NCBI RefSeq assembly: GCF_965641715.1
Contig: NZ_OZ282453.1
From: Escherichia coli
Lineage (GTDB): Bacteria; Pseudomonadota; Gammaproteobacteria; Enterobacterales; Enterobacteriaceae
Length of the DNA: 64,000 nt
Reading direction: 5' to 3' (one strand)
Shown in pieces: positions 7,249 to 59,352 of the stretch; position 1 is the stretch's first letter; each line of letters starts with the position of its first letter. The notes under the pieces are model-generated. The model searched no databases and was not told the origin of the DNA. It saw nothing but the letters and a program-made list of their open reading frames with translations. A program made the translations under genes and the position numbers.

Positions 7249-8283
7249 ATGGCTTACTCTGTTCAAAAGTCGCGCCTGGCAAAGGTTGCGGGTGTTTCGC
7301 TTGTTTTATTACTCGCTGCCTGTAGTTCTGACTCACGCTATAAGCGTCAGGTCAGTGGTGATGAAGCCTACCTGGAAGCGGCACCGCTTGCGGAGCTTCA
7401 TGCCCCGGCTGGAATGATTTTGCCGGTGACCTCCGGTGATTATGCAATCCCGGTGACCAACGGTAGTGGTGCTGTCGGTAAGGCGCTGGACATTCGTCCA
7501 CCAGCCCAGCCGCTGGCACTGGTTTCTGGCGCGCGTACCCAGTTCACGGGCGATACCGCTTCATTGCTGGTGGAAAATGGTCGTGGCAATACTCTGTGGC
7601 CGCAGGTGGTTAGCGTGCTGCAGGCGAAAAACTACACCATCACCCAACGTGATGATGCTGGTCAGACACTGACCACCGATTGGGTACAATGGAACCGTCT
7701 GGACGAAGACGAGCAGTATCGTGGTCGTTATCAAATCTCTGTTAAGCCGCAGGGTTATCAGCAGGCGGTTACGGTTAAACTGCTGAACCTGGAACAGGCG
7801 GGCAAACCGGTTGCAGACGCGGCTTCCATGCAGCGTTACAGCACGGAGATGATGAACGTTATTTCCGCCGGTCTGGATAAATCTGCCACTGACGCCGCGA
7901 ACGCTGCGCAAAATCGTGCCTCCACCACTATGGACGTACAAAGTGCAGCTGATGACACCGGTTTACCAATGCTGGTCGTACGCGGGCCGTTCAATGTGGT
8001 TTGGCAACGTCTGCCAGCGGCGCTGGAAAAAGTGGGCATGAAAGTGACCGACAGCACCCGTTCGCAGGGCAACATGGCCGTAACTTATAAGCCGCTGTCT
8101 GACAGCGACTGGCAGGAACTGGGCGCGAGCGATCCAGGCCTGGCATCCGGTGACTATAAACTGCAGGTTGGCGATTTAGATAACCGCAGCAGCCTACAGT
8201 TCATCGATCCGAAAGGTCATACTCTGACTCAGAGTCAGAACGACGCGCTGGTAGCTGTCTTCCAGGCTGCGTTTAGCAAGTAA
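7249..8283 (+). CDS. bamC: Outer-membrane protein assembly lipoprotein BamC (NlpB)
   Basis: 344 aa from MAYSVQKS with a lipobox LLAAC. Sits 14 bp after dapA, as in the dapA-nlpB operon. Confidence 0.9.
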
Positions 8284-14856: not shown

Positions 14857-15218
14857 TTATGAGAATAAATACTCATTTAAGGGTGAAAACATTTTGCCTG
14901 CAAATGATTATCAGGAAATATAACATTATCGAAGTATTCAAATTAACAACTATTAAATAATATTAAACATTTTTAACGTAAACATTAAGAATATTCATCT
15001 TGTTATCTGTCTGTATTTTAACCAGAATTAAATCAGTATTAGATGCCGTATGAATATCTCGAAATGTTGCTGTGTATCACATACAAATTATCACCGCAGG
15101 ACCATAGTATTTACATAAGGTTTGTCCCCCGGAGGTAGTCATCGCAGCAATCGAGTAAATTAGCTTCACCACGGTATATTGTTTCCGTAGAATACCCATA
15201 ATTATAAGAGAGGTTGTT

Positions 15219-15278
15219 ATGATTGAACGTGAACTGGGGAACTGGAAAGACTTTATCGAAGTTATGCTTCGTAAGTAA
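15219..15278 (+). CDS. ypfM: 19-aa small protein YpfM (stress-induced micro-ORF)
   Basis: atgattgaacgtgaactggggaactggaaagactttatcgaagttatgcttcgtaagtaa encodes MIERELGNWKDFIEVMLRK, the exact known YpfM peptide. SD gagagg lies upstream. Below the 60-aa ORF-track cutoff. Confidence 0.75.
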   Translation: MIERELGNWKDFIEVMLRK

Positions 15279-15338
15279 TTCCTGAGACAAAGTATAAACA
15301 GCAAGAACCCGCTGAGCAGGTTCTTAATCGGAAAGTTG

Positions 15339-15372
15339 AAAAAGGCGACACATTGGCATGTCGCCTTTTTTA
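15339..15372. terminator. Rho-independent (bidirectional) terminator between ypfM and acrD
   Basis: aaaaaGGCGACAcattggcatGTCGCCtttttt is a perfect 7-bp stem flanked by A- and T-runs, a few bp from the acrD stop. Confidence 0.6.
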
Positions 15373-15376
15373 TTGC

Positions 15377-37905: not shown

Positions 37906-39132
37906 ATGGGAATTAACGAAATCATCATGTACATCATGATGTTCTTTATGCTGATAGCTGCCGTAGACAGGATCCTGTCGCAGTTCGGCGGTTCTGCTCG
38001 TTTCCTCGGTAAGTTCGGTAAAAGTATCGAAGGATCAGGCGGTCAGTTCGAAGAAGGCTTTATGGCAATGGGCGCACTGGGCCTGGCGATGGTCGGTATG
38101 ACCGCGCTGGCACCGGTACTGGCTCACGTTCTCGGGCCGGTAATTATTCCGGTTTACGAAATGCTCGGCGCTAACCCATCGATGTTCGCCGGAACACTGC
38201 TGGCGTGCGATATGGGCGGCTTCTTCCTCGCCAAAGAGCTGGCGGGCGGCGACGTAGCCGCGTGGCTATACTCTGGGTTAATTCTCGGGTCGATGATGGG
38301 GCCAACGATTGTGTTTTCCATTCCGGTGGCGCTCGGCATTATCGAACCTTCTGACCGTCGTTATCTGGCGCTCGGCGTGCTGGCGGGCATTGTGACCATT
38401 CCGATTGGTTGTATCGCTGGTGGTCTGGTTGCTATGTACTCCGGTGTTCAGATCAACGGCCAGCCGGTGGAATTCACTTTCGCCCTGATCCTGATGAACA
38501 TGATCCCGGTGATCATTGTTGCGATTCTGGTGGCGCTGGGGCTGAAATTCATCCCAGAAAAAATGATCAACGGCTTCCAGATCTTCGCCAAATTCCTCGT
38601 TGCATTGATCACCCTCGGTCTTGCCGCTGCGGTAGTGAAATTCCTGCTTGGCTGGGAACTGATCCCCGGTCTGGATCCTATCTTTATGGCCCCTGGCGAT
38701 AAACCCGGTGAGGTGATGCGCGCCATTGAAGTTATCGGTTCTATCTCCTGCGTTCTGTTAGGGGCGTATCCGATGGTGCTGCTGCTGACCCGCTGGTTTG
38801 AAAAACCGCTGATGAGCGTCGGTAAAGTGCTGAATATGAACAACATCGCGGCAGCCGGCATGGTGGCAACGCTTGCCAACAACATCCCGATGTTCGGCAT
38901 GATGAAGCAGATGGATACCCGCGGCAAAGTCATCAACTGCGCCTTCGCCGTTTCCGCTGCTTTCGCCCTGGGCGACCACTTAGGCTTCGCCGCTGCCAAC
39001 ATGAATGCCATGATCTTCCCGATGATTGTCGGCAAGTTGATCGGCGGCGTAACGGCGATTGGCGTGGCGATGATGCTGGTGCCAAAAGACGACGCGACCG
39101 CGGCTAAAACCGAAGCGGAGGCACAATCGTGA
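37906..39132 (+). CDS. eutH: Ethanolamine permease EutH
   Basis: 408-aa polytopic membrane ORF. Confidence 0.9.
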   Translation: MGINEIIMYIMMFFMLIAAVDRILSQFGGSARFLGKFGKSIEGSGGQFEEGFMAMGALGLAMVGMTALAPVLAHVLGPVIIPVYEMLGANPSMFAGTLLACDMGGFFLAKELAGGDVAAWLYSGLILGSMMGPTIVFSIPVALGIIEPSDRRYLALGVLAGIVTIPIGCIAGGLVAMYSGVQINGQPVEFTFALILMNMIPVIIVAILVALGLKFIPEKMINGFQIFAKFLVALITLGLAAAVVKFLLGWELIPGLDPIFMAPGDKPGEVMRAIEVIGSISCVLLGAYPMVLLLTRWFEKPLMSVGKVLNMNNIAAAGMVATLANNIPMFGMMKQMDTRGKVINCAFAVSAAFALGDHLGFAAANMNAMIFPMIVGKLIGGVTAIGVAMMLVPKDDATAAKTEAEAQS

Positions 39133-40532
39133 ACACTCGCCAGCTACTGAGCGTCGGTATCGATATCGGCACCACCACCACCCAGGTGATTTTCTCCCAC
39201 CTGGAACTGGTTAACCGTGCGGCGGTGTCGCAGGTGCCGCGCTACGAATTCATCAAACGCGAAATTAGCTGGCAAAGCCCGGTGTTCTTTACCCCTGTCG
39301 ATAAACAGGGTGGTTTAAAAGAAGCGGAACTGAAATCGCTGATTTTAGAGCAATATCAGGCTGCGGGCATTGCGCCGGAAAGCGTTGATTCTGGTGCCAT
39401 CATCATCACCGGTGAAAGCGCGAAAACCCGCAATGCTCGCCCGGCGGTGATGGCGCTCTCTCAGTCGCTGGGCGATTTTGTCGTCGCCAGCGCCGGGCCG
39501 CACCTCGAATCCGTGATCGCCGGTCACGGTGCCGGGGCGCAAACCCTTTCTGAACAACGGCTGTGTCGGGTACTGAATATCGACATCGGCGGTGGCACCG
39601 CGAACTACGCCCTGTTCGATGCCGGAAAAATCAGCGGCACTGCCTGCCTCAACGTCGGTGGTCGCCTGCTGGAAACCGACAGCCAGGGGCGCGTGGTTTA
39701 CGCTCATAAACCGGGGCAGATGATTGTGGATGAGTGCTTCGGCGCAGGCACCGATGCCCGTTCGCTGACCGGCGCGCAGCTGGTGCAGGTTACCCGGCGG
39801 ATGGCAGAGCTGATTGTCGAAGTGATTGACGGAACGCTTTCGCCGCTCGCGCAGGCATTAATGCAAACCGGTTTGCTGCCCGCAGGTGTTACGCCCGAAA
39901 TCATTACGCTTTCTGGCGGCGTGGGCGAATGTTATCGCCACCAGCCCGCCGACCCGTTCTGTTTTGCCGATATTGGCCCGCTTCTGGCAACGGCGCTGCA
40001 TGACCATCCGCGCCTGCGTGAGATGAACGTGCAGTTTCCGGCGCAAACCGTGCGCGCCACGGTGATTGGTGCGGGTGCACATACCCTTTCGCTCTCTGGC
40101 AGCACAATCTGGCTGGAGGGCGTACAACTGCCGCTGCGCAATTTGCCGGTGGCGATCCCAATTGATGAAACGGATCTGGTGGGTGCCTGGCAACAGGCGC
40201 TGATTCAGCTGGATCTTGATCCCAAAACTGACGCGTACGTGCTGGCGCTTCCCGCCTCGCTGCCTGTGCGTTACGCCGCGGTACTGACGGTCATCAACGC
40301 GTTGGTCGATTTCGTCGCGCGTTTTCCGAATCCGAATCCCCTGCTGGTGGTGGCCGGGCAGGACTTTGGTAAAGCTCTGGGCATGTTGTTGCGCCCACAG
40401 CTACAACAACTCCCGTTGGCAGTCATTGACGAAGTGATTGTCCGCGCGGGGGACTATATCGACATTGGTACGCCTCTTTTTGGCGGATCGGTTGTGCCGG
40501 TGACGGTGAAATCACTCGCATTTCCTTCCTGA
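39129..40532 (+). CDS. eutA: Ethanolamine ammonia-lyase reactivase EutA
   Basis: 467-aa ORF. 4-bp overlap with eutH. Its last 19 bp (40514..40532) coincide with the attL repeat of the inserted element. Confidence 0.9.
   Translation: MNTRQLLSVGIDIGTTTTQVIFSHLELVNRAAVSQVPRYEFIKREISWQSPVFFTPVDKQGGLKEAELKSLILEQYQAAGIAPESVDSGAIIITGESAKTRNARPAVMALSQSLGDFVVASAGPHLESVIAGHGAGAQTLSEQRLCRVLNIDIGGGTANYALFDAGKISGTACLNVGGRLLETDSQGRVVYAHKPGQMIVDECFGAGTDARSLTGAQLVQVTRRMAELIVEVIDGTLSPLAQALMQTGLLPAGVTPEIITLSGGVGECYRHQPADPFCFADIGPLLATALHDHPRLREMNVQFPAQTVRATVIGAGAHTLSLSGSTIWLEGVQLPLRNLPVAIPIDETDLVGAWQQALIQLDLDPKTDAYVLALPASLPVRYAAVLTVINALVDFVARFPNPNPLLVVAGQDFGKALGMLLRPQLQQLPLAVIDEVIVRAGDYIDIGTPLFGGSVVPVTVKSLAFPS
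40514..40532. repeat. attL-like direct repeat (ACTCGCATTTCCTTCCTGA), forming the present 3' end of eutA
   Basis: 13/19 identity, including the identical core CTTCCTGA, with attR at 51714..51732. Confidence 0.6.
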
Positions 40533-40627
40533 ATACTGTAGTTATCAGGCGTGGCGCTGGGTGGCTGGGTGTTAGTGGGATTATATCCGGCTGTGTATCC
40601 GGTCGGGGTGATTGGTCTGTATAGCAG

Positions 40628-40652
40628 AAAACCCGGCGCGGGGCCGGGTGAA
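40628..40652 (-). terminator. Rho-independent terminator after the element's 186-aa cargo gene
   Basis: Minus-strand RNA ACCCGGCcccgcGCCGGGTtttctg. The same hairpin recurs at 42316..42340. Confidence 0.6.
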
Positions 40653-40655
40653 CTA

Positions 40656-41216
40656 TCACTCAGGGAACAAGTTGATTTGAAGCAAACTGCCAATGTATTT
40701 ACCAGTGCTTTTAATTTTTCGCTTTGATGGCTTACACGAATTCAGGTTGACACCAGCCTGGCTAGATATTGGCTTGTATTGCCGCTCCGCCAGTACGATC
40801 AGGTCTGCCGCGTCTTTTAGCTTTCCATCGTTAGCCAGTTCCAATGCTCGATCCGCCATTTGCCCGCATTGTTGAATCAGCTTAAGTTGCGATACCTCCA
40901 GTCGCAATTGCTGGATTCGTTCTACCACTTTCGCCCTAATGCGCTTAGTTTCACGCATTCCCATTCTTAATGCCTGGTTGCCAGTAAGTGAGTAAACCTC
41001 TTTTTCTTTCCTGAAGTTTGCGGCTTTACCGTCAGCTTGGACGCGCATTTTATGCGCTTCCAAGAATTCGCCCTCCAATTCATCCCTGATCTTCGCGTTG
41101 AATCTGTCGTTCTTGAGTTCATTTAACCCTTCCGCCTTGCGGATCTGGTTGATTAACTCCAACAATTCATCACTGCGGATACGCCACTCGCTATCAACCT
41201 GTACCAAGTCAAACAT
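40656..41216 (-). CDS. Hypothetical coiled-coil protein (cargo gene A of the element)
   Basis: ORF 40656..41309. The internal start MFDLVQVDSEWRIRSDELLELINQ at 41216 has a GGGAG SD 5 nt upstream and is used here. No recognisable catalytic motif. Its 3' end abuts the attL side. Confidence 0.5.
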   Translation of the reverse strand: MFDLVQVDSEWRIRSDELLELINQIRKAEGLNELKNDRFNAKIRDELEGEFLEAHKMRVQADGKAANFRKEKEVYSLTGNQALRMGMRETKRIRAKVVERIQQLRLEVSQLKLIQQCGQMADRALELANDGKLKDAADLIVLAERQYKPISSQAGVNLNSCKPSKRKIKSTGKYIGSLLQINLFPE

Positions 41217-41380
41217 GTTGTTGCTCCCGTTTTGCTGCCATAGGGCAACGGCTCGCCAGCCTTTATCACCTCCTTTAGTTGTTGCGATTCTTAACTGAAT
41301 GGTTATCAAAACGCTGCGTTAATATCATTGATATGTATCAAATTTGTTTTGTGACGCGACAATGCCTTGTGAATATCAAT

Positions 41381-41410
41381 AAAAAACCCAGCGCTATGGC
41401 TGGGCTTCGT
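41381..41410 (-). terminator. Rho-independent terminator after the HTH regulator gene
   Basis: Minus-strand RNA GCCCAGCcataGCGCTGGGtttttt. Stop codon at 41438. Confidence 0.65.
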
Positions 41411-41413
41411 TTA

Positions 41414-41451
41414 ATGAGATGGGATTGAAAGCGGGTTTTATTTATCTCCCA
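41414..41451. promoter_or_regulatory. Operator-like site O1 (ATGAGATGGGA ... ATCTCCCA) upstream of cargo gene A
   Basis: Contains the reverse complement of the 11-mer TCCCATCTCAT found in O2, plus an ATCTCCCA half-site. Confidence 0.4.
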
Positions 41452-42220
41452 GATTGTATTCCCAGTTGGGAAGTAAAGTTATCAGCTTGTCACCTTTCTT
41501 GCCTTTGCCGATCTGGTTGCCGTTCTCGTCTTTCTTGTGTGTGATTTCCTGGTCAACCTTAATCAATCCTCTCTCTTTGGCTTGCTCAATCAGTCGGTAG
41601 AATGCGCCGTTACTAATCGGCTTCCGGTTACCGTCGTTATCCATCGCAGTGATTTTCTGTTGCAGTCCGGCGTTATTGCCCAGGTATTCGCCACCTAACG
41701 CCGCCAGTACCTGACACAACATGCCGACACTGTATTTTTTCGGATTTGGGTTAATCCATTCTTTAGCTCCCATCTCTTTTTTGTCGTTGGGCGCTTGTTC
41801 TGCTGCTACTGCGTTCACCTTTTCATCTCCCATCTTGTTACCGCTTGCTGTGCGCTTAATTTCTTCCAGTTCTCTCTCAAGCTCACCTATACGTAATTCA
41901 CGCTCGATAATTACCCCGCGCAGCACATCATCATCACCGTGAGGGCTTGCCTGAATCCAGTTACCATTGGCGAGCGGTAGGAGGGCATAAATTCCGAACA
42001 GGTCACAAAGCGCGGCAAGTGTATTAAAATCAGGTTCCCGGCGTCCCTCCATCCAGTGGCTAACAGCGCCTTTTGTGACTGGTTCGCCTTTCTTGCTTTT
42101 AACACCCATGCGATCCAGTGCGGCGGCTATCTCTTCGCATTTAATGCCACGACCGCCAGCATAGCCCGCCGCTTTCGCGGCCCCTTTGAGGATGTCGTGA
42201 ATTTTCATTTCGTAACTCAT
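41438..42220 (-). CDS. XRE-family helix-turn-helix transcriptional regulator with a ~190-aa C-terminal domain of unknown function (cargo gene B)
   Basis: ORF 41438..42235. Probable start MSYEMKIHDILKGAAKAAGYAGGRGIKCEEIAAALD... with GGAGA 7 nt upstream. The N-terminal 70 aa have the Cro/C1 HTH pattern. Confidence 0.6.
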   Translation of the reverse strand: MSYEMKIHDILKGAAKAAGYAGGRGIKCEEIAAALDRMGVKSKKGEPVTKGAVSHWMEGRREPDFNTLAALCDLFGIYALLPLANGNWIQASPHGDDDVLRGVIIERELRIGELERELEEIKRTASGNKMGDEKVNAVAAEQAPNDKKEMGAKEWINPNPKKYSVGMLCQVLAALGGEYLGNNAGLQQKITAMDNDGNRKPISNGAFYRLIEQAKERGLIKVDQEITHKKDENGNQIGKGKKGDKLITLLPNWEYNLGDK

Positions 42221-42226
42221 AATTTT

Positions 42227-42257
42227 ATCTCCCATCTCATGAACTATGGTGGGAGAT
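42227..42257. promoter_or_regulatory. Operator O2: perfect inverted repeat ATCTCCCA-N15-TGGGAGAT overlapping the SD and start of the HTH regulator gene
   Basis: Seen directly. A near-identical IR sits at 42935..42965 and a related site at 41414..41451. Probable autoregulatory site. Confidence 0.5.
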
Positions 42258-42315
42258 TAACACGGCGGGCCTGTGGCGGGTAAGTGTAACGGGAGAGAAT
42301 GTTGATTCAGGTCAC

Positions 42316-42340
42316 AAAAACCCGGCGCGGGGCCGGGCTG
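42316..42340 (-). terminator. Rho-independent terminator after the membrane-anchored cargo gene C
   Basis: Minus-strand RNA AGCCCGGCcccgcGCCGGGtttttgtg. Near-identical to the hairpin at 40628. Confidence 0.6.
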
Positions 42341-42359
42341 TGTTAGTACGTCGTTGCTC

Positions 42360-42836
42360 TTAGTTCATGAGGAGATCTTTAAATTCGACGCCGTATTCAT
42401 GGGCAATGTCGCCTCTATAGTAGATGTTATCTTTCAGGATATATCCGACGTTTCTCAGGACGTGAGAACACTCTCTTACTGCTGCCTCTTTACCCCTTAA
42501 AACATCCTCCCCGCTAACTTCTTCGCCGCTGTACTTCACTGCGATGTTGTCTGCTGCACGCTCTGCTGCTTCCAGGCAATTAATCTTCACTTTTCCCCGA
42601 TTCTCCCAGGCAAAATCGCGGCCATAAATCCCCATTGCATCAACCATCTTTTGCGCAGTAGTGCGCTCATCCACCCATTCAGTGCGTTCGAACTTCTCGC
42701 CAGCAGCTACCCTTGCCGCCAGTTGTTCGTGTTGAGTCTGTACGGCCGCAGCCTCTTCTTCCCATTTGCCTTGCTCGTTGTATACGATGAAGCCAGTGAT
42801 GACTGCAGCGATTAGTAACTTGTCCAGAAAATTCAT
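42360..42836 (-). CDS. Hypothetical protein with a single N-terminal transmembrane helix (cargo gene C)
   Basis: 158 aa, MNFLDKLLIAAVITGFIVYNEQ then a soluble Glu/Ala-rich domain. SD-like sequence upstream. No family recognised. Confidence 0.5.
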   Translation of the reverse strand: MNFLDKLLIAAVITGFIVYNEQGKWEEEAAAVQTQHEQLAARVAAGEKFERTEWVDERTTAQKMVDAMGIYGRDFAWENRGKVKINCLEAAERAADNIAVKYSGEEVSGEDVLRGKEAAVRECSHVLRNVGYILKDNIYYRGDIAHEYGVEFKDLLMN

Positions 42837-42934
42837 AGCTTCCTCCTATCTGTTCAATTACCCGGCATCTCTTGCCGTTGAACGTATTAAACAAAATGCC
42901 AGTCAGGGATAAAGCGATCTGCGTCATAAAGTCC

Positions 42935-42965
42935 ATCCCCCATCTCATTGATATTGATGGGAGAT
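42935..42965. promoter_or_regulatory. Operator O3: inverted repeat ATCCCCCA-N15-TGGGAGAT about 100 bp upstream of cargo gene C
   Basis: Same half-sites and same spacer start (TCTCAT) as O2. Confidence 0.45.
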
Positions 42966-43056
42966 TGTTTAATTGGTCAGAAATTAAGCGTTTATGTGCG
43001 CTGCCGGGTATCCACCTCCTATCTGAAGATGGAAAGATGGGTGATATAATGTGATG

Positions 43057-43120
43057 GCAATTGGTGGATTGCGTGGTTTTTACAATGATAAGGGGCTGGC
43101 GTAATGCTGGCCCCTTTGTT
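43057..43120 (+). ncRNA. Candidate small RNA (extended -10 promoter to plus-strand-specific terminator)
   Basis: TGaTATAAT at 43042..43050. Hairpin GGGGCUGGC-guaau-GCUGGCCCC + UUUGUUU at 43091..43120 pairs, with two G-U wobbles, only in the plus-strand transcript. No convincing ORF. Confidence 0.25.
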
Positions 43121-43170
43121 TATCCGGTATCCGGTATCCGGTATAAGCGGGCGTGTATCCGGTAGCGGGG
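43121..43170. repeat. Tandem heptamer repeat (CCGGTAT x3.5) followed by GTGTATCCGGTAGCGGGG
   Basis: Seen directly. A related GTGTATCCGGTCGGGG lies at 40593..40608 near attL. Confidence 0.6.
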
Positions 43171-43356
43171 ATATGGGCGCGTGTACGTGAAATCTGGCAA
43201 ATTAGCAGGGTAATTGTGAGGGAATTTTTGCGTAGGAGCGTTTGTGGCTGGTAGCTCAAAATTGAGCTTTGCTTTTCATTCAATGACTTAGGTTAATTCT
43301 AGCAAAACGCTAGGATTGAATGTCCGCCAGTCTGCTTCCCCTAGCGTGGGATTTGG

Positions 43357-45723
43357 TCAACGTCTGCGCGGCTGCAAAATTCCTCCGGGTCGTTGTGATT
43401 CACGCTGCATCAGTCGCATCGCTGTGTTTTCTATGGTCTGCTGCAGCGCTTTTGAGTCTTCCTCTGTCCAGCCGTTGTTAGCCTGGATGTTGAACGTATT
43501 GTTCATCGTGATTCCGCCACCGCCTACCAGATCGCGGCCCGGTGTAACTCGTCCACCTTCACCCGGGATCATGTACTGTTTCCCGCCAGTGGATGTAAAT
43601 AGCTCCGGTACTCCGTGCTCCCCGACCCTATAAAGATTGCCACCGTTAACAGCCCCGCCGTTGTAACGAGCGCCAGCCAGTCCAAGCGTTTTGGCGGCAG
43701 CTACGCCAGTAGTAAGCCCGGTAAGTCCAGTGGCCCCAGCGCCGCCCATCGTGGCTACGTTAGCCAGGTATGCAGGAGTGGCCCACGCCGATCCTAATGC
43801 TGTAGCCTCTGCTAGTGCTTTAGCTGTTGCGGCTGCGTTTGCGGCTTCACCAATTAGCTGCTGTTTAACCCACTCAGCACCCATCTGGACAATGCCACCG
43901 ACCACAGAAGACAGGATCGTACTGCCAACGTTGGCAAGTGACTCTTGCAGCGATTGAGTACCGTTTATCAGTCCGGTAAATGCGCTGCCAGCGCCAGACG
44001 ATAACCCATCGACCATATTCCCGATGAGGCCATTTATATCGCTTTGTTTCTTCCACTGCTGCCACTGGAGATCCAGAACCCTTTGTTCATGTGCGATCTC
44101 TTCCTGGCGCAACTGCTCTTCGGTAGCCCCAAGATCTAGAAGCATTTGCTTGCGAACAGCCCATTCATTTTGGATCTTCTGTATTGGGTCAATCTGAGCT
44201 TTCTGCTTATCCTGCTCACTGACAAGACTGTCCCATTTCGCTTTCTGCTTGCGGATGGCTTCAGCTTCATCAATTGCTGCGAGTGTACTTGCTCGCTGTT
44301 TCGCGCTGATCAACCGTTTCTGCTCAGCCGCTTCCAGGTCTTCTACTGCTTTTTTCCGTTTATTGAGCGCCGCTAGTTCGGGATCGTATTTTTCCACCAA
44401 TGAAAGGCCGCTTGCTTCCTTACGTTCGCGTTCTCTTTGTGCCTGTTTGGCTGCCTGCTTAGCGGCGTTTTCTGCTTGTTTGGCTGCTCTTTCTTTCGCC
44501 CTGGTGTTCTCTTCTTCCTTGCGCTTATTCTCTTCTAACTCCTTGTTTTGTTCGCGTAATTTAACGATTTCCTCATGATGCGCCTTTGTCAGCTGGCCTT
44601 CTTTCAGTGCCCGATCTATATCAGCGTTTGCGTTGCCTTTTAGCTGTTCCTGTTTAACTTGCAGATGTTTAATCATCATTTCGCCAGTGGCAATCGCTGC
44701 CGCAGACGCTCCAGCATTCAGAGCTTCATTTAACGCTCTCTGACGTTCTTCTGCTGTTAATGCCTCGTTGCTGTATCGAAGTAGCGCATCAACGTATTTC
44801 TCCAGTTCTGCGCGGCCTGCCGCAGTTGCTGGTTCCATTGCTTTTAGGATGCTCAGAAGGCTTTGCGCTTCATAGGAAGACGGGTTTTTGCGGAACTGCG
44901 CCATAGCGTTATAAAGCGCCATAGCTTCACCCTCTGTGATTCTGTACTTAGCTCCCAGCCCTTCAATGACCGCTGATAACTGTTTGCCAAGCGCTGCACC
45001 GAATGCGCCTTCCTTGCTTAATTTGTTGAGCACTTCACTCAGTGAATTTCCTGACACGCCCAGCGCGTCGAGTTCTCTTGCTACCGTTCCCAGGTCGCCG
45101 CCTTTCATCCATCCTGCATTAGAAAATTCAGTGATAGCCCGGCCCGCTTCCCGCGTTTCTTCCTGGAGTGTTTTTAGCGCCCGCACGGCCTGCTCTTTCA
45201 TTACGGCGGCGGCAATGGCGTTGTTCTGTGTGGCTTCGTAATATGAATCACTGAAAGCGTTAACGCCCTGGGTGGATTTGCCGATCACGGCGTCGATTGA
45301 TGCTAATGCCTCCTTCATCCTTTCAGCGCTATCCGTTGCGTCGTCCATGCTGTCCGTTAGGCTGTTGGCAATCGCCCCGCCAATAGCCATCACCGCCCCC
45401 ATGACCGCACCGCCAGTACCGAAGGCAGCGGCAAGTTGTGCACCCTGCACAGCGAACGCCTGGAGCGCATTACCGCCCATCTGCAATTGAGTGGCAAGGT
45501 CTGCGATCTGGTATGATGCGTTACGGATTGCCGGGGAAAGGTTGGTTTTGACTGCGGCAGACGTTTTGGTCATCTGCGTGTTCAGTTTTTTGACGCCACT
45601 GTCAGCGCGTTTTGCGCCGCGTTCTATACTGTCAAAAGCCTGGTCCGCTTCTTGTTGTGCTGCCAGGAGTTTACCAGTACGGGCGTCGACCTCATAGTAT
45701 ATGGTCCCAAGATTCCCACTCAT
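43357..45723 (-). CDS. Tape-measure-like large coiled-coil protein (lambda-H-type C-terminal region), orphan
   Basis: 788 aa with an Ala/Glu/Lys/Gln-rich heptad-like central region (EENKRKEEENTRAKERAAKQAENAAKQ...). Gly-rich C-terminus with LYRVGEHGVPELF, the 'VGExGPELF' signature recalled for lambda-family tape-measure C-terminal domains. No neighbouring tail genes. Confidence 0.6.
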   Translation of the reverse strand: MSGNLGTIYYEVDARTGKLLAAQQEADQAFDSIERGAKRADSGVKKLNTQMTKTSAAVKTNLSPAIRNASYQIADLATQLQMGGNALQAFAVQGAQLAAAFGTGGAVMGAVMAIGGAIANSLTDSMDDATDSAERMKEALASIDAVIGKSTQGVNAFSDSYYEATQNNAIAAAVMKEQAVRALKTLQEETREAGRAITEFSNAGWMKGGDLGTVARELDALGVSGNSLSEVLNKLSKEGAFGAALGKQLSAVIEGLGAKYRITEGEAMALYNAMAQFRKNPSSYEAQSLLSILKAMEPATAAGRAELEKYVDALLRYSNEALTAEERQRALNEALNAGASAAAIATGEMMIKHLQVKQEQLKGNANADIDRALKEGQLTKAHHEEIVKLREQNKELEENKRKEEENTRAKERAAKQAENAAKQAAKQAQRERERKEASGLSLVEKYDPELAALNKRKKAVEDLEAAEQKRLISAKQRASTLAAIDEAEAIRKQKAKWDSLVSEQDKQKAQIDPIQKIQNEWAVRKQMLLDLGATEEQLRQEEIAHEQRVLDLQWQQWKKQSDINGLIGNMVDGLSSGAGSAFTGLINGTQSLQESLANVGSTILSSVVGGIVQMGAEWVKQQLIGEAANAAATAKALAEATALGSAWATPAYLANVATMGGAGATGLTGLTTGVAAAKTLGLAGARYNGGAVNGGNLYRVGEHGVPELFTSTGGKQYMIPGEGGRVTPGRDLVGGGGITMNNTFNIQANNGWTEEDSKALQQTIENTAMRLMQRESQRPGGILQPRRR

Positions 45724-46012
45724 AATATCTTTATCCGCGTTGTGCGGACACCTCCGATTATTCTTTACTCTAATAATTTCACAATGAAACAGTTTATTGC
45801 CGCTTCAGTGGCTTCGTGTTCCGGTTTGCTTCGATCAATCACAAAAAATACAGCTTAATAGAATCAATGGCTTATAAAGTTGTATTAGCTATGTTTCTTC
45901 GTCCGTGCCACTGAAAACCCAGTTTTTCCAATGGAATCAATACTGATATGTATCCATACTGTTTTTCACATAATGTACGTTATGCGCACTACGGGAAACG
46001 TACTGAATTTAT

Positions 46013-46243
46013 TTACTGGTCGCCGTTCAGTTCATGCAGAGTCTGTTCTGGCAATGAATCCAGCCAGTTTTCTGCATCCTCCCTGTAACACTCCAGGATG
46101 CAACGGTTTGTGAAGTTGATGAAAGCGGTCAGTGATTCTGCTTCGTCGTTCCTGTGCGTTCTCCTGGCGTGCTTGCGTAGTCGTTTCGCGTCTGCCAGTT
46201 GGTCATTGAGTATCTTCAGTCTGTCGGCAATATCATCGTTCAT
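46013..46243 (-). CDS. Hypothetical small protein (76 aa)
   Basis: ORF co-oriented with the element's genes. 290-bp non-coding gap before the tape-measure-like gene. No motif recognised. Confidence 0.35.
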   Translation of the reverse strand: MNDDIADRLKILNDQLADAKRLRKHARRTHRNDEAESLTAFINFTNRCILECYREDAENWLDSLPEQTLHELNGDQ

Positions 46244-46430
46244 GTCGTCTCTCCCTCGCGCGCGCGTCGTACTTGTCCGAAAATTACCCCCATAAAAGCG
46301 CCCCTCATATAGTGCAAAATCCCGGCTGACGCGGATCTCAGTGGGTTTTAGCAGTGAAAACTGACATCAAAAACGGCTCGCTAAGGTCCGCTAAGTATCC
46401 GCTATCGTTCGCTAACCCCCCGCTAACCTA

Positions 46431-46796
46431 TTAGATATCGCATCCAACGCTATTGAGCTGGCTATGTATATCGGCGCGAATTAACTTCAGGCGTTTACAA
46501 AATTCGCGTTCTTCCGAATTAAGCTCGCGGCCACCTTGTTTCGAGGCAATGAGCTTGTTGATGGTGGAAAGCGAATATTCACTCCATATACGAAGCATTT
46601 GTCGCTTCATTGGTTGCTCGCTCAATGGTGAGTTTTTCAGGTCTGACACGCGCTCTGCGACGGTTCTTGCGATGCCTTGTACCACTCGTAGTGCCAACAT
46701 GATGATTTTCTCCGGACTTGTGCTAATATAGTTCCCGAACATTGTTTCGAGACTGCTTATCCTGTTTGTCTTGTCCGATTTGTTCATTGGTCGCAT
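46431..46796 (-). CDS. Hypothetical protein (121 aa)
   Basis: Co-oriented ORF in the compact gene array 46431..47993. No family recognised. Confidence 0.45.
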   Translation of the reverse strand: MRPMNKSDKTNRISSLETMFGNYISTSPEKIIMLALRVVQGIARTVAERVSDLKNSPLSEQPMKRQMLRIWSEYSLSTINKLIASKQGGRELNSEEREFCKRLKLIRADIHSQLNSVGCDI

Positions 46797-46838
46797 TGTT
46801 AAGTCAGCCGGGGTAATTCCCGGCTTTCTTTTATCCGA

Positions 46839-47381
46839 TCAGTACCGAATCCCTATCGCATTGAATACGCGTTTCCGTTGCTCAGCTTCAGGATCGGCGG
46901 CCATTTCTGGTTCTGGCTCCGGCATAGACGGGGCGGCATCAAAATGCTCAATTTCACGACCGAAATACGAGTTCAGGTCAATACCTGCCGAACTATCCAC
47001 TCCATCAAAATAGCGACGCTGTTCCTCGGTGAGACAGCTACCCAGACGTTCCTCAACCTGCGCCATAAACTCAGCATCCGGTGAGAAGTACTCATCCGGA
47101 GTCGGAGCACCGCTCTGTTTGTGCATCTCCATTTTCTCTGCGTTCGTTTTCAGCCCGGCAATGCGTTTCTCCAGTCCGGCGGCTTTAATAGCGTCAGCAA
47201 CGATTTGTGGGATCTGCGGTTTAATTATTTCGATAACTTCATTGCTGATTAATTTAAACTGGGCCATACGGATCGCTTTAATCTGCTTATTTAACAGTGC
47301 GCGTTCCCCTTCGTTGGCGGTTTTATCACGCTGTGCTACCAGTTCATCGCCTTTGTTTGTCAGTACATCAAATGCGTCCAT
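46839..47381 (-). CDS. Hypothetical phage-like protein (180 aa, acidic C-terminus)
   Basis: Co-oriented ORF. C-terminus PEPEPEMAADPEAEQ. Possible packaging or scaffold-type function, assigned by position only. Confidence 0.45.
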   Translation of the reverse strand: MDAFDVLTNKGDELVAQRDKTANEGERALLNKQIKAIRMAQFKLISNEVIEIIKPQIPQIVADAIKAAGLEKRIAGLKTNAEKMEMHKQSGAPTPDEYFSPDAEFMAQVEERLGSCLTEEQRRYFDGVDSSAGIDLNSYFGREIEHFDAAPSMPEPEPEMAADPEAEQRKRVFNAIGIRY

Positions 47382-47398
47382 TGTCTTTCCTCCTCCGA

Positions 47399-47725
47399 TT
47401 ATTTAAAAGTGCTTATTGACACGCCGAAACGACGACTTAATTCAAAAAGGAGTCGCGCCTTTGCAGTGCCTTCCATGTCTTCCGGCATTTCAGACTGAAG
47501 TTTATCAGCTACTTCATCAACAAGTGGCCGAACCGTTTCCACGAACTTGTCCGCAATATAATCAGCAGAACGCATCACTTTTTCCTGGAATTCCTCACGG
47601 CGTACCTGGGCGGCTGATTTAGGGGCTGTCGTGCGCTGAAAATAACTGTCTAATGAATGCATGGCATCTGCTCCTTTTACTTTGATTGCTGTTATTTCTT
47701 TAATTGTGTTTGCTTTGATTTTCAT
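47399..47725 (-). CDS. Hypothetical protein with a C-terminal HTH-like segment (108 aa)
   Basis: C-terminal ...AKARLLFELSRRFGVSISTFK resembles a DNA-binding helix-turn-helix. Confidence 0.4.
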   Translation of the reverse strand: MKIKANTIKEITAIKVKGADAMHSLDSYFQRTTAPKSAAQVRREEFQEKVMRSADYIADKFVETVRPLVDEVADKLQSEMPEDMEGTAKARLLFELSRRFGVSISTFK

Positions 47726-47801
47726 GCTGCCTATTCCTTCAGAAATTGCGGTAGTTTGCTTTTTAAATCAATAAGTTATTTGATAATCTCAGTAGCTGTT
47801 T

Positions 47802-47993
47802 TCATTGGTGGCGAGCGCCTTTGTTTTTATAGAATTCCAAAATCTCAGATCGGATAAACTTAATTCTTGAGCCAATCGGACTGACCGGGACGGGCCAGCC
47901 TTTAATCTTGTTCATCCACCGGAATATTGTCCGACGGGTAACGCCGAATAAAGCTGCTACCTCGTTAACCGTCATTAATTCGCTATCATTCAT
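47802..47993 (-). CDS. alpA: AlpA-family prophage transcriptional regulator / excisionase-like protein
   Basis: 63 aa, MTVNEVAALFGVTRRTIFRWMNKIKGWPVPVSPIGSRIKFIRSEILEF, the classic AlpA (MerR-type wHTH) pattern found next to P4-type integrases. Confidence 0.75.
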   Translation of the reverse strand: MNDSELMTVNEVAALFGVTRRTIFRWMNKIKGWPVPVSPIGSRIKFIRSEILEFYKNKGARHQ

Positions 47994-49116
47994 GTTCTCA
48001 CCTCAAAAAGTAGCGGTGAGGAAAATATGGAGAAAACCCTCACCGCGCCCTGAATGAAATTAAAGACCAACATTACTGTTGATACTTATTATTATATTCC
48101 TCCTGTCCCTGTTTCACATCTTTTACCATATAGTGAAAGGGGATATTCTGTAATGTTTACAAAACTTTTAATTAGCAAAAAATAATTGCGCATCTCACGT
48201 AATGCAGGGATAATATTACTCAAGGGCTGGTTGCCCTTACTCAAAATGTGATCTATAACTACAACGATCTATTTCACTTCCCCGCTTTCTCCGGCGGGAT
48301 TTTTTTGCCTGCAATCTGGCACCATTGCGCACATTAAAATTAGATGCCATTTAAAAGCGATATAACGCGTTCTGCCGGGCTTAATTTTGGCTATCCACTT
48401 GGAAGGGTAAGCCTGTTTTGATTCGTCTGGCGTGGAATGGTGCGGCGGTAATATCAGATCTCAGCGTTCTGCGTGGTGGGATGAAATAGCCTGGCAGGAT
48501 TTGCGTGTGGTTTGCTCTCCCAAAAAATGGGGTAATGGCGCTGGCTGGATGGCAGGACTCCGCGCTGATTACTGGATGGCTGAAAATTTAATGAAATCGC
48601 ATCAATTTTAATGCGTCTAAATCGCTCTGTGGCGACGTGAAGTTTTCAGGTAAGCAAGTGTAGCTGTGTGGTGTGTTCATCGCGTTACTGGCACCATTCC
48701 GTTCGAATTTGGCGCTATCAGGATGGTTTGCGGTGGTCGGCGGCGGGGATAAACTTGCTTGAGTGGTCACCTCAGCCTGCTGTGCGTCGTGTGATGGTAC
48801 TGTCTGCACCTGGCTATACGCTGCTTTGCTGCTGTTTCCTGTCTGGTCTGTATACGCGATAAAACCCATCGGCTTTACAGTGAGTGAGTTTTTTGCGCTT
48901 TGCTTTCCATTCGGTTTGCTTACTGCTGCTGTGTGTCTGTGCGGTAGCTCAGAAAGCTGTCGATGATAACCATCACTGCCAGACCGTCTTTTGAGCTGGC
49001 GATTGCTCGAAGTCTTCCGAAGGTCCGCTGGGCTTGTTGCTTGTTTGTGTTCTTTTAAAATGCGCGCCTCTTACTTTCTCTTAAAAAGAAAAAAGGAATA
49101 TACAGATCTCATACTA

Positions 49117-49274
49117 TGTGTGTCCCAAATGTCACACGTCATGGCCTGACCTGTATCCCAAATGTCACACGTCACCCTCTGACCTGTATCCCAAATGTCA
49201 CACGTACCTGTGTCCCAAATGTCACACGTCTATTGTTAATTAATTGTTGACCTGTGTCTCAAATGTCACACGTC
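49117..49274. repeat. Iteron array: 5 direct copies of ~22-bp CTGT(G/A)TCCCAAATGTCACACGTC with an AT-rich tract (49231..49250) before the last copy; putative replication origin
   Basis: Copies start near 49119, 49151, 49186, 49208 and 49252. Directly downstream of the Rep-like gene. Confidence 0.75.
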
Positions 49275-49338
49275 TGTTGATGGTTTAAGTAATAAAAAGG
49301 GCCACCATTTTAGGTGACCCATTGATGCGTTTTAGTCG

Positions 49339-50103
49339 TTATCTTGCGTTCTCGACCTGAAAAAGCATTCTGTATTTTCTTGCGTGCTGACCAATAACAT
49401 ATTCCCCGTATGGCTCAATGAGTCCTAACTCAACCAGGATTTTCATCTGGCGAATTACGGTGCGGCGATTCATGCCCCATTCATCAGCTATTTTTGCCTG
49501 GCAAACTTCAGATACATAAGATCCATCATTCTGCTTTCTTGCTGCTGATGCAATGCTGGATAATACGCTCCAGGCTGTAGCTTTAGCTTTATTCTCGCAA
49601 CCACTTCTGACAAATGCCTTACGTGCCGCACCCAAACAGACATAACTGCAATAAATTCCTTTTTCTTCCGTTTGGTATTGTGTCTCTTTATCCTGCATGG
49701 CTTCCGGTTCTTCCGGCGCTTCCTGCTGTGGTGCTGTCTGCGAAGTTTTAGCGGCCATACTGCGTAGCTCGTTCACGATATCAGTAGCTGATTTCTTCTC
49801 GCTTTTAGTTTCCTGCGTGACTGATAAATACTCACCTTGTAACGCCAGGAAGTCAGCGCGGGCGTTTGCCTGGCTTTGTTCTGGTGATTCAGGTTCTGCA
49901 TCGGCAGGTGATGAAATCGGTGATACACGCGCCCAGCCTGTTTTGGCGTTGCATTCCCAGCGATAACCATTAAAGCGGATATCATTCAGGCCATCATCAA
50001 TGGCGCTCCGTACTTCTTCCGGGATCGCGTCGATTTTCTGAAGGCTGTGTTTACCGAGTGATTCGCCTTGCCGTGGGGCGTAGGCGGTTGGTAAAATATT
50101 CAT
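49339..50103 (-). CDS. Putative replication initiator / iteron-binding protein with a C-terminal winged-HTH
   Basis: 254 aa. C-terminal ...KIADEWGMNRRTVIRQMKILVELGLIEPYGEYV is a wHTH. Adjacent to the iterons. Acidic low-complexity middle region. Confidence 0.55.
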   Translation of the reverse strand: MNILPTAYAPRQGESLGKHSLQKIDAIPEEVRSAIDDGLNDIRFNGYRWECNAKTGWARVSPISSPADAEPESPEQSQANARADFLALQGEYLSVTQETKSEKKSATDIVNELRSMAAKTSQTAPQQEAPEEPEAMQDKETQYQTEEKGIYCSYVCLGAARKAFVRSGCENKAKATAWSVLSSIASAARKQNDGSYVSEVCQAKIADEWGMNRRTVIRQMKILVELGLIEPYGEYVIGQHARKYRMLFQVENAR

Positions 50104-50349
50104 GTGGGATTTCTCCTTTTTACTTGTTTCCCATATCGCCCGGATTGGTTAGCGGCCTTCCGGGCTTTTTGTTGCGTTGATCCTATTTTCGATCCCCGGA
50201 TTTTTTATTACAAACTTGGCTTAATCATTGATTTTATTGGTATAGCTGTATAAAAGGATAACAGGATAAAAGGGTGATAGATTGTGTAACCTGTTAACCT
50301 TTTATACCAGTAAGGCGAAAGAAAAGCCGGACGAATCCGGCCTTATAGT

Positions 50350-51555
50350 TCACGGCTCCAGCGGATTACCGCCACCAGCCAATATCTGGTCGATGGCGTC
50401 GCTGTAGTCCTGCATCATGGCCCGCCGTTGCTTCAGATAGGCCGCCTGGTTATAAACGCCGCGCACACCTTTCGGAACGTGGGCCAGTTGGATTTCGATC
50501 CAGTCTGGTGAGTATCTGCCGTACTCGTTAAGTGCGGTTGAAAAGGTGGTTCGCCAGCCGTGACCAGTGGCTATCGACTTGTATCCGATACGCTCCAGGG
50601 CTTTAAGGATGGCACTGGCTGAAAGTGGCTTATCCATGAATCGACCAGGGAACACAAAAGCACTGTATCCGCTGCGGGTAAACTGGTCCTGTAATAGCTC
50701 GACCGCCTGCCGGGATAGCGGGACCACATGCGGGCGGCGGGCCTTCATGACTTCAGCGGGTAGGGTGATGGTTGCCGATTCCAGATCTACCCACTCCCAG
50801 CGCATTAAACGCAGTTCTGCGGTCCTTAGGGCGCTTAATATAAGCAAACGTATTGCCGTCTGAATCTGAACGCTCCCGGCTCTCTCAAGGGCTTTGTAGA
50901 AGGCCGGGATTTCGTTAATTTGTATCCATGCGTTATGGCCTGGGCGTCGGGCTTTCAATGCCGTGTCCAGATCTGCAACCGGATTTCGGTTAACCAGTTC
51001 AGTGATAACGGCAAATTTGAAGATTTCCCCTATACGCTGCCGTAATTTTCGGGCCTGTTCCGGCGCGGTGCGCTCTTTCTTCTGAAGCAATGCCAGCACG
51101 TCACGGGCCGTTATATCGACAATCGACCGCTTGCCAAGTACCGGATAAACATCTTTCTCCAGTGCCGATCTAACTTGTTTCGTGTAAGACTCAGACCAAC
51201 CGCTCACTCTGGTAGCAAACCAGTCTTCCGCTACCGTCTTAAAACTTGCCGCCATGTTGAGCGCATCAATGGCTTTCTCCTTGCGCGCTTCTTCCATTGG
51301 GTCAATTCCCTGGGCGATGAGTAAACGGCTCTCTGTGGCGCGTTTACGTGCTTCCTTCAAGGTAATCAGCGGATATACCCCAATAGCCTGTAACCGCTCT
51401 TTCTTGTCTATCCAGTACCGGAATCGCCAGTATTTGCTGCCATTGGGATGTACCAGCAAGAACAGGCCAGGTGTCTGTGAATCGGTGAGTTTGTAGGGCT
51501 TGTCCTTCGGCTGGGCGGCCTCTATGCCCTTTGCTGTCAGTGGTGTCTTGCTCAA
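50350..51555 (-). CDS. intZ: Tyrosine recombinase/integrase, P4 family (IntZ-like)
   Basis: 401 aa. N-terminal arm-binding region MSKTPLTAKGIEAAQPKDKPYKLTDSQTPGLFLLVHPNGSKYWRFRY and C-terminal catalytic region with ...HGWRTTFSTALNE...LAHV...Y. Adjacent to eutB as intZ is in K-12. Confidence 0.85.
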   Translation of the reverse strand: MSKTPLTAKGIEAAQPKDKPYKLTDSQTPGLFLLVHPNGSKYWRFRYWIDKKERLQAIGVYPLITLKEARKRATESRLLIAQGIDPMEEARKEKAIDALNMAASFKTVAEDWFATRVSGWSESYTKQVRSALEKDVYPVLGKRSIVDITARDVLALLQKKERTAPEQARKLRQRIGEIFKFAVITELVNRNPVADLDTALKARRPGHNAWIQINEIPAFYKALERAGSVQIQTAIRLLILSALRTAELRLMRWEWVDLESATITLPAEVMKARRPHVVPLSRQAVELLQDQFTRSGYSAFVFPGRFMDKPLSASAILKALERIGYKSIATGHGWRTTFSTALNEYGRYSPDWIEIQLAHVPKGVRGVYNQAAYLKQRRAMMQDYSDAIDQILAGGGNPLEP

Positions 51556-51713
51556 AACCGGATACCTCGATCTAACGACTCGATAACCCCGCTCATGTAT
51601 CCGTCGCGTTCGGTTGCGTTCGGCAGGATAAGTAACGGGCGTATTAAGTGGAACACCTTACAGGACAAGGGATAACGATGAAATAGAATTGTTCGAATGC
51701 TGTGAAAAATGTT

Positions 51714-51732
51714 ACTCATCACTTCTTCCTGA
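51714..51732. repeat. attR-like direct repeat (ACTCATCACTTCTTCCTGA), remnant of the ancestral eutA 3' end directly upstream of the eutB RBS
   Basis: Partner of 40514..40532. 130 bp downstream of the integrase gene. Confidence 0.6.
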
Positions 51733-59146: not shown

Positions 59147-59164
59147 CGCAGAGGTGCGCTTTGT

Positions 59165-59270
59165 TTATGCCGGATGCGGCGTGAACGCCTTATCCGGCCT
59201 ACAAAACATCGAAAATTCAATATATTGCAGGAGAAAGTAGGCCTGATAAGCGTAGCGCATCAGGCAATTT
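59165..59270. repeat. REP elements in the yfeZ-yfeY intergenic region
   Basis: gccggatgcggcgtgaacgccttatccggcctac ... aggcctgataagcgtagcgcatcaggc. Confidence 0.7.
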
Positions 59271-59352
59271 TGTGTTTGTCATCAACCTTTAACGGCACTT
59301 TTTGGTGAATTTGCACTCCAAGCAACGTTATTGAATAACCAAAGGAAGTGAC

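Follow-up and report, generated by a model that had tools for sequence, protein, structure and literature searches.

In Escherichia coli K-12, the ethanolamine (eut) operon is occupied between eutA and eutB by CPZ-55, an element of 6,790 bp and nine genes (intZ and yffL–yffS) that is annotated as a 'cryptic prophage' and has no tape-measure gene. Laboratory strains of K-12 have harboured it for decades. An 8-bp duplication, written TCAGGAAG, has been published for this element, together with a prevalence of about 8% (PMC6379469). One study describes this locus as a 'prophage insertion hot spot' and reports a 'novel prophage' at it in a uropathogenic strain (PMC6652756), and CPZ-55 itself is carried by some K-12 lines and not by W3110 (PMC13449921). 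Among phage satellites, the PLEs (elements that resemble phage-inducible chromosomal islands) of Vibrio cholerae encode their own tape measure, which replaces that of the helper phage in chimeric tails (PMC12987554), and a mycobacterial satellite class also carries a tape measure (PMC12822802). Here, we analysed a 64,000-nucleotide stretch of E. coli DNA (RefSeq assembly GCF_965641715.1, contig NZ_OZ282453.1; hereafter the window), in which an insert of 11,200 bp (40533–51732) lies between the eutA stop codon and eutB. The insert is a mosaic relative of CPZ-55. Its tape-measure gene, its putative replication cassette and the gene content of its relatives suggest that the CPZ-55 family may be a lineage of phage satellites.

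The boundaries of the insert were defined by comparison with the empty site in E. coli C. There, the junction is uninterrupted and reads ...ACTCGCATTTCCTTCCTGA followed by GGGAACGACTTATG; at the left junction, the empty site reads ...CCTTCCTGA followed by GGGAACG. The insert therefore spans 40533–51732, and a copy of the core stands at either end. The 19-mers at the two junctions agree at 13 of 19 positions, and their final eight, CTTCCTGA, are identical. The original prediction had proposed an integrative element that splits the eut operon, is bounded by 19-bp imperfect direct repeats (40514–40532 and 51714–51732), carries a P4-family integrase at its eutB end and is antisense to eut throughout. 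The uninterrupted junction in E. coli C upholds these boundaries, although the exact repeat is just the 8-bp core, and the remaining points hold as well. All convincing open reading frames (ORFs) of the insert lie on the minus strand, antisense to eut: the integrase beside eutB, ten others and one doubtful ORF of 93 aa. The integrase (401 aa) has the architecture Arm-DNA-bind_3, Phage_int_M and Phage_integrase, as in P4/CP4-57-type integrases, and is transcribed away from the adjoining eutB. The insert is thus a site-specific integrative element of the CPZ-55 family, placed by crossover of an IntZ-type integrase in CTTCCTGA, the core published for K-12. Because the crossover falls in a core that overlaps the eutA stop codon, this codon and the eutB ribosome-binding region remain intact; the core keeps the 11-nt leader and Shine-Dalgarno region of eutB, and the genes from eutB through eutR are intact in the window.

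When 5,423 complete E. coli genomes were searched with the two flanks joined, 4,965 had eutA directly next to eutB. The occupied sites fall into two groups, a K-12 type (213 genomes at ≥99%, mostly laboratory derivatives) and a type with the alpA-p108-p180 backbone of the window element (217 genomes). In E. coli EK2009 (NZ_CP040663.1, locus L005, about 505–525; related loci are numbered in this way throughout), an otherwise empty junction reads ...CCTTCCTGACTTCCTGAGGGAACG, with the 8-bp core twice in tandem. Conservative excision by a tyrosine recombinase should leave one core copy, and the tandem core may be either a slippage event or the scar of an imprecise loss.

The original prediction described CPZ-55 as roughly 7 kb long, with nine genes and no tape measure, and its annotation agrees. 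The idea of a larger or different occupant proved right in size (11,200 against 6,790 bp) and gene content, but the element belongs to the same family. Window and K-12 elements share the integration site, the core, the antisense orientation and the layout of integrase, winged-helix gene and iteron array. They differ in the winged-helix protein and its iterons, which form another cassette; moreover, an alpA-like gene, p108, p180, p76 and a 788-aa tape measure are found in the window element but not in K-12, whereas K-12 has YffN, YffO (a small terminase), YffP and YffQ, all missing from the window. Protein identities to K-12 are 92% for IntZ over 401 aa (95% to the integrase of L002), 70% for YffS, 34% for YffR, 45% for YffM (partial) and about 27% for YffL (partial), and nothing else matches. 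DNA alignment is limited to int (84% nucleotide identity), yffS (75%) and short patches, which excludes full-length identity to the annotated CPZ-55.

The whole element was found in none of 5,426 complete E. coli genomes and none carried ≥80% of it; the best match covers 63% at 94% identity. Its segments nevertheless have close matches in different strains (Table 1), and these alignments show the element to be a mosaic of modules circulating among E. coli strains. It is a mosaic relative of CPZ-55 within the same family, neither a copy nor an unrelated occupant. In a scan with the integrase across one genome per species, a method that reaches close relatives only, the K-12-type element alone was close, and other matches were 31–49% identical and lay in unrelated bacteria.

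The assignment of the 788-aa protein as a tail tape-measure homolog is firm by sequence similarity. It matches phrog_1538 (E 8e-112 over residues 1–774) and PDB entry 9occ_M, 'tail tape measure protein gp18' (E 1e-41 over residues 72–746), and reaches 25.7 bits for Pfam TMP_2, under the 30.2 cutoff. Intact alleles of 725–791 aa are present in nine other loci (L001, L002, L017, L018, L020 and L024–L027), with conserved N- and C-termini and hypervariable, almost unalignable centres. The gene stays open at 38–45% identity between alleles, and the ratio of non-synonymous to synonymous substitution rates (dN/dS) is 0.05–0.17 between alleles close enough to measure, which indicates that it is under purifying selection. 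In the element, the gene lies outside any tail cluster, among orphan genes without PHROG matches; the homologous phage gene belongs to a normal tail cluster.

The best phage matches of the window tape measure are mEp013, mEp010, mEp515, mEp044, mEp554, mEp021 and MagusPhagus, of the mEpimmI group. These recently defined temperate gut coliphages integrate at ydaM, abgT or mppA, and their tape measure is a confirmed virion protein (PMC11893012). The 733-aa tape measure of CP104123 aligns end-to-end with the 735-aa protein of mEp013 at 50% identity, while mEp013 and mEp021 share only 45%. A second link runs through K-12 YffO, an Sf6-type small terminase (PF20901, 37.5 bits against a 27-bit cutoff; phrog_1482, E 5.5e-13), whose N-terminal domain is 43% identical to mEp013 gp71, encoded directly upstream of the likely large terminase. 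By record counts, YffO-like terminases occur among coliphages only in the mEpimmI group, of which mEp013 alone was checked directly. Small-terminase and tape-measure genes occur together in L025–L027 at the eut site and in L024 at a second site. YffQ and YffR of L025 are 100% identical to those of K-12, and DNA homology between the two resumes 7 bp past the tape-measure stop codon, so that K-12 cleanly lacks this gene. When compared with 50,697 phage records, the right 6 kb of the window element was unmatched and the left 5.2 kb matched only inside the tape-measure gene. An mEpimmI prophage decayed in place was rejected as the origin of the insert: the att site differs, as does the integrase (25% identical to that of mEp013), and DNA is shared only in the tape-measure gene.

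The gene beside the integrase exists in at least four chromosomal types and a fifth on a plasmid, each with its own array of 21–23-bp direct repeats shortly downstream. The p254 type is found in the window, L001, L018 and L019, the yffL type in K-12 and L002, a 193-aa type in L025–L027, a 55%-identical relative of p254 in L024 and the plasmid type in L021. Within the window, the iteron has five exact matches, against 0 in 100 shuffles. Such joint variation of a DNA-binding protein and the iterons beside it is the hallmark of an initiator–origin pair, and from their sequences these interchangeable cassettes of winged-helix gene and iterons are probably initiator and origin. The 254-aa protein of the window (p254) scores 23.9 bits for HTH_36, just under the 25-bit cutoff, and has weak matches to PHROG replication initiators; a homolog (42–43% identity) adjoins iterons on the 8-kb plasmid. 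In an AlphaFold2 model, its C-terminal domain (pLDDT 75–91) adopts a generic winged-helix fold. Foldseek returned only generic matches to this model (E > 1e-3) and a PDB sequence search returned nothing. The modelled structure thus cannot separate p254 as an initiator from a regulator.

Two relatives place the same backbone outside the eut operon. L021 (NZ_CP062859.1, 8,009 bp; also NZ_CP062904.1) is an extrachromosomal replicon in two E. coli assemblies, untyped and non-mobilizable. It encodes AlpA-type, p180-like, YffM-like, small-terminase-like and p254-like proteins and an XRE regulator, has 22-bp iterons and carries a serine recombinase in place of IntZ; judged by this gene content, it looks like an episomal relative of the CPZ-55 family. 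L024 (GCA_013449585.1, JACDQF010000001.1, 8456–19726) has the same architecture at a second chromosomal site, near LysR, amino-acid permease and TonB-receptor genes: an integrase 29% identical to that of the window, a winged-helix gene with six iterons, an HTH_17 gene, a small terminase and a 725-aa tape measure. Genes for capsid, portal, large terminase, tail tube and lysis are missing from the window element and from all of the about 12 loci examined, whose sizes range from 6.8 to 15 kb.

On these grounds, we propose that the CPZ-55 family is a hitherto unrecognised lineage of phage satellites that parasitise mEpimmI phages, rather than a decayed prophage, and give this a probability of about 0.5. 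Such an element would be excised by the integrase together with the HTH_17 protein and would replicate from the iteron origin by means of its own winged-helix initiator. It would exploit mEpimmI-type siphophages for particles, with the two phage-derived genes of the family serving that exploitation. The small terminase subunit (in relatives, and as YffO in K-12) would redirect packaging, and the element's tape measure would either replace that of the helper, giving chimeric tails, or poison helper tail assembly, as in PLE satellites. The window copy itself may be transfer-defective or dependent on another packaging route, because its terminase gene is missing and a decayed segment is present. 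To our knowledge, the chimeric-tail strategy is known only from Vibrio PLEs. A family with its own iteron replicon, small terminase and tape measure might extend it to siphophages of E. coli; hypervariability in the centre of the tape measure would then reflect an arms race in progress with the helpers, and the insert would be a reversible off-switch for ethanolamine use. We put this wider proposal at slightly below even odds.

Comparison with known satellites shows both shared and distinct features. Like phage-inducible chromosomal islands (PICIs), the elements are about 7–15 kb long, have an integrase at one end and genes that all run in one direction, carry an AlpA-like small helix-turn-helix (HTH) gene, a putative replication module and a slot for defence cargo, and are devoid of capsid and lysis genes; a small-terminase-type packaging gene completes the likeness in relatives only, since the window copy has none. 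Unlike PICIs, the element has a winged-helix protein and iterons instead of a primase-replicase, carries a tape-measure gene and interrupts an operon instead of occupying a neutral site. With PLEs it shares the form of a small integrative element whose own tape measure is related to, yet diverged from, that of a specific phage group, which suggests that the element's tape measure stands in for that of the helper. Its sequence, however, is unrelated; the PLE helper is a lytic myovirus whereas the presumed helpers here are temperate siphophages, neither a tail chaperone nor a baseplate hub gene could be recognised in the element, and incorporation into particles is putative. P4 resembles it in the integrase domains (arm-binding, SAM-like and catalytic) and presumably in alternating between an integrated and a plasmid state, as the 8-kb relative suggests. 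A P4-like satellite was nevertheless rejected, as Pfam, PHROGs and NCBIfam searches revealed no alpha primase, sid, psu, delta, epsilon or P2-type cos.

A number of observations weigh against a satellite lifestyle. The window element contains no terminase-like sequence and no packaging-redirecting gene (small terminase, Rpp or Ppi), and it includes a pseudogene and a decayed stretch. Its predicted circular junction (attP), CATCACTTCTTCCTGAATACTGTAG, is absent from metagenome and viral contigs, the backbone proteins p180 and p254 are absent from IMG/VR, and scans of IMG/VR with the tape measure, p180 and p254 gave no related small element. K-12 CPZ-55 excises in fewer than 1 per 100,000 cells (PMC3105296) and was inactive in mobilome sequencing. 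In its model, the putative initiator is structurally just a generic winged helix, and p254 could instead be an iteron-binding regulator, repressor or partition protein. No primase, helicase or tail chaperone was detected in the element. The likeness of the terminase to that of the phage is confined to the N-terminal HTH domain, and outside the tape-measure gene no cos or pac candidate is shared with the 50,697 phage records.

Several of these points would suit a cryptic prophage, the leftover of a once-complete temperate phage at eutA/eutB, whose tape-measure and terminase genes are fragments without a present role. This is the standard K-12 annotation ('cryptic prophage CPZ-55'), and it fits the pseudogene and decayed 1.1-kb stretch of the window copy, the very rare excision and unseen activity of the K-12 element, the insertion sequence (IS) elements and deletions in several variants, and the phage derivation of both recognisable morphogenesis genes. 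We nevertheless consider it unlikely. Every capsid, portal, large-terminase, tail-tube and lysis gene is missing from all of the about 12 loci, and the tape-measure gene stays open and under constraint across strongly diverged alleles; cognate protein–iteron cassettes are swapped as units, the most similar phages differ in integrase and att site, and the same backbone or architecture recurs in a free 8-kb replicon and, with another integrase, at a second chromosomal site.

Alternatively, the element could be a resident anti-phage interference island, in which a mismatched tape measure (and, in relatives, the small terminase) spoils the tails or packaging of mEpimmI-like phages and a slot is kept for defence genes. 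Defence-type cargo is indeed present in relatives (L002 and H9Ecoli have an AIPR protein, L026 a YafO toxin), interference with tail assembly is established for Tai (PMC11364771) and Rta (PMC12987554), and the hypervariable tape-measure centre fits an arms race. On the other hand, no PADLOC model matches the element proteins, and a purely resident defence locus would need neither integrase nor excisionase-like gene nor replication cassette; we regard such an island as distinctly improbable. As satellites typically interfere with their helpers, an interference role is compatible with a satellite lifestyle. The plasmid-like nature of the protein–iteron cassettes, and the existence of an extrachromosomal relative of 8 kb that carries a serine recombinase, would also be expected of a phage-independent integrative element that alternates between chromosomal and episomal states and spreads by transformation, conjugative mobilisation or generalised transduction. 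This has very little probability in our view: Pfam and PHROG searches turned up neither a relaxase nor an oriT or mobilisation gene, typing classes the plasmid relative as non-mobilizable, and the conserved, selected tape-measure and small-terminase genes would be left unexplained.

The consequences of the insertion for eut are best known from K-12. In BW25113, ethanolamine plus B12 does not induce eutB (PMC7617246), and scarless removal of the insert in K-12 restores growth on ethanolamine (PMC11334477). The polar effect on eutBCLK that the original prediction considered plausible has therefore been shown experimentally for the K-12 element and extends to the window element by analogy, with hairpins and the later loss of downstream genes in other occupied strains in support. 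We infer that in a carrier of the window element eutBCLK are no longer induced, since transcripts begun at the eutS promoter do not get past the insert. They would probably be blocked by hairpin terminators, by convergent transcription and by the action of Rho on untranslated RNA. The element holds 22 terminator-like sites (a hairpin followed by a T-rich tract), several of them on the plus strand, against 13.7 ± 3.5 in shuffles. In USMARC-49610 (L001 11440–11450), truncated copies of intZ and eutB have been joined by a deletion, and H9Ecoli (L028 18928–19793) has lost the DNA from a point within the element up to eutR in a deletion bounded by IS1; these losses in two occupied strains are consistent with silence of the downstream eut genes after insertion. 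At the right end of the element, 55 nt upstream of the eutB start, lies a sigma-70-like site on the plus strand (51662–51689; AGGACA, 16 nt, TAGAAT; 9/12 matches). It might drive weak, element-borne transcription of eutBCLK; this region differs in K-12.

The site, the 8-bp duplication, the occupancy of about 8% and the loss of downstream eut function were already known from K-12 CPZ-55. What this analysis adds is a new mosaic member of a family and at a hot spot that were both known before, together with its putative replication cassette, evidence of selection on the tape measure and the mEpimmI link; in the searchable literature, neither CPZ-55 nor the yff genes are linked to satellites. Carriers are expected to be Eut-negative, which is predictable from K-12 and useful for predicting strain phenotypes. 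Should the family indeed be satellites of mEpimmI phages, E. coli K-12 would itself offer a tractable model, and helper phages isolated on K-12 are at hand; satellite-encoded tape measures would be shown outside Vibrio, and the uncharacterised genes yffL and yffO would acquire the roles of initiator and small terminase. Excision of the element would also work as a genetic switch by which a metabolic pathway relevant in the gut is restored.

Table 1. Features of the insert and its flanks, with the modules of the mosaic (coordinates in the window)
Feature	Coordinates	Strand	Remarks
eutA (flank)	39129–40532	+	From the ORF list; 98% identical to EK2009 eutA; TGA at 40530–40532 within the crossover core
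Left junction (attL), 19-nt imperfect repeat; native eutA 3' end	40514–40532		Exact 8-bp core CTTCCTGA at 40525–40532
Mosaic module	40640–41300		Identical in 24+ E. coli genomes
Variable left-end gene, 186 aa from RefSeq ATG (561 bp in H9Ecoli)	40656–41216	-	Weak similarity to phage anti-repressors
Mosaic module	41264–43675		99% to AP023286
Two-way hairpin terminator between left-end and yffS-like genes	41383–41408	both	Plus-strand fold -12.7 kcal/mol, z -2.5
YffS-like protein, 265 aa, N-terminal Xre-type HTH	41438–42235	-	Family core gene
YffR-like protein, 158 aa, hydrophobic N-terminus	42360–42836	-	34% identical to K-12 YffR (aa)
Strong hairpin, 12-bp stem, downstream of tape-measure gene	43090–43116	+	-20 kcal/mol, z -2.3; eut transcription also runs into it
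Tail tape-measure protein homolog, 788 aa	43357–45723	-	phrog_1538, PDB 9occ_M
Mosaic module (tape-measure centre)	43676–45576		No close match in 5,426 genomes; best 85% over 61% of segment
Mosaic module	45577–51493		98.5% to CP104123
76-aa protein (p76) directly upstream of tape-measure gene	46013–46243	-	84–99% identical in L001, L002
121-aa protein, C-terminal half YffM-like; family core gene	46431–46796	-	45% to K-12 YffM (partial)
180-aa backbone protein (p180), orphan	46839–47381	-	28 homologs, essentially all E. coli or Shigella
108-aa backbone protein (p108)	47399–47725	-	98–99% identical in L001, L002
63-aa HTH_17 protein, excisionase/AlpA-like	47802–47993	-	First gene of long leftward gene run
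Gene-poor, partly decayed region	47994–49118		From tblastn and translation
Five 21-bp iterons TGTRTCYCAAATGTCACACGT with AT-rich DNA alongside; putative replication origin	49119–49273		Five exact matches
254-aa protein (p254), C-terminal winged helix; putative replication initiator	49339–50103	-	HTH_36 and weak PHROG matches
IntZ-type tyrosine integrase, 401 aa, with arm-binding domain	50350–51555	-	Three Pfam domains, E 1e-21 to 1e-30
Right junction (attR), 19-nt imperfect repeat; element DNA plus shared core	51714–51732		Exact core CTTCCTGA at 51725–51732
eutB (flank), intact, 453 aa	51744–53105	+	ATG at 51744, 11 nt past right repeat

The remaining genes of the window element are listed in Table 1. 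The ORF of the left-end gene is open up to a TTG at 41309 (217 aa) and matches PHROG anti-repressor families at E 1e-5 to 2e-4. The YffS-like protein, 99% identical to its counterpart in AP023286, is likely a regulator, judging by HTH_31/HTH_3 matches that fall under the Pfam cutoffs. Its residues 53–81 resemble the cI repressor of mEp013 (L022 9000–9086; 45% over 29 residues, 59% for K-12 YffS). This likeness is short and could be generic HTH similarity, though it is of note given the other links to the mEp013 phage group. The YffR-like protein had no family matches in Pfam, PHROG, NCBIfam or PADLOC scans, nor did the 76-aa protein in PHROG and PADLOC scans; the latter is conserved in its sub-type, with the same protein annotated in L017, L018 and L028. 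The 121-aa protein is 40% identical to an ORF of plasmid NZ_CP062859 and 44–55% to relatives in L024–L027, and p180 is 35–44% identical to two ORFs of the 8-kb plasmid. Family searches with p108 gave no matches. The 63-aa protein matches PF12728 (36.2 bits against a 27-bit cutoff) and phrog_66, 'excisionase and transcriptional regulator' (1.7e-9); Pfam Phage_AlpA itself is matched only by the plasmid relative and not by this protein. The decayed region contains a pseudogene, interrupted by an in-frame stop, for an 89-aa protein (48104–48367) and the doubtful 93-aa ORF (48588–48869). In six-frame reading, its larger gene was too decayed to name, and the homologous stretch is a frameshifted pseudogene in RefSeq for L002 and L018. 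None of the PADLOC models matched any of ten element proteins, an NCBIfam scan gave nothing besides the integrase and HTH matches, and an Rfam scan of the whole window gave no family at gathering score.

Relatives carry further genes at fixed positions, which look like hot spots for defence or accessory cargo. An AIPR abortive-infection protein and a partner are encoded between the 76-aa gene and the tape-measure position in L002 (6638–9145) and in H9Ecoli (15057–17564), a YafO toxin is encoded next to the origin in L026 (11135–11614), and a gadC/murI/decarboxylase block with IS1 replaces the tape-measure end in L019 (957–4810). At the position of the AlpA-like gene, an HNH endonuclease gene is found in L017 (ATCC 8739; 7302–7697), L025 (12140–12535) and L027 (12681–13076). 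HNH proteins assist terminases in HK97-type cos packaging; the family endonuclease is 26% identical (E 1.7e-4) to an HNH protein encoded near the mEp013 packaging genes.

Outside the insert, the window contains an intergenic repeat of roughly 135 bp between yfeZ and yfeY (59149–59289), not present at that spot in EK2009. Since EK2009 copies occupy two other intergenic sites, this repeat is probably an ERIC- or BIME-type element.

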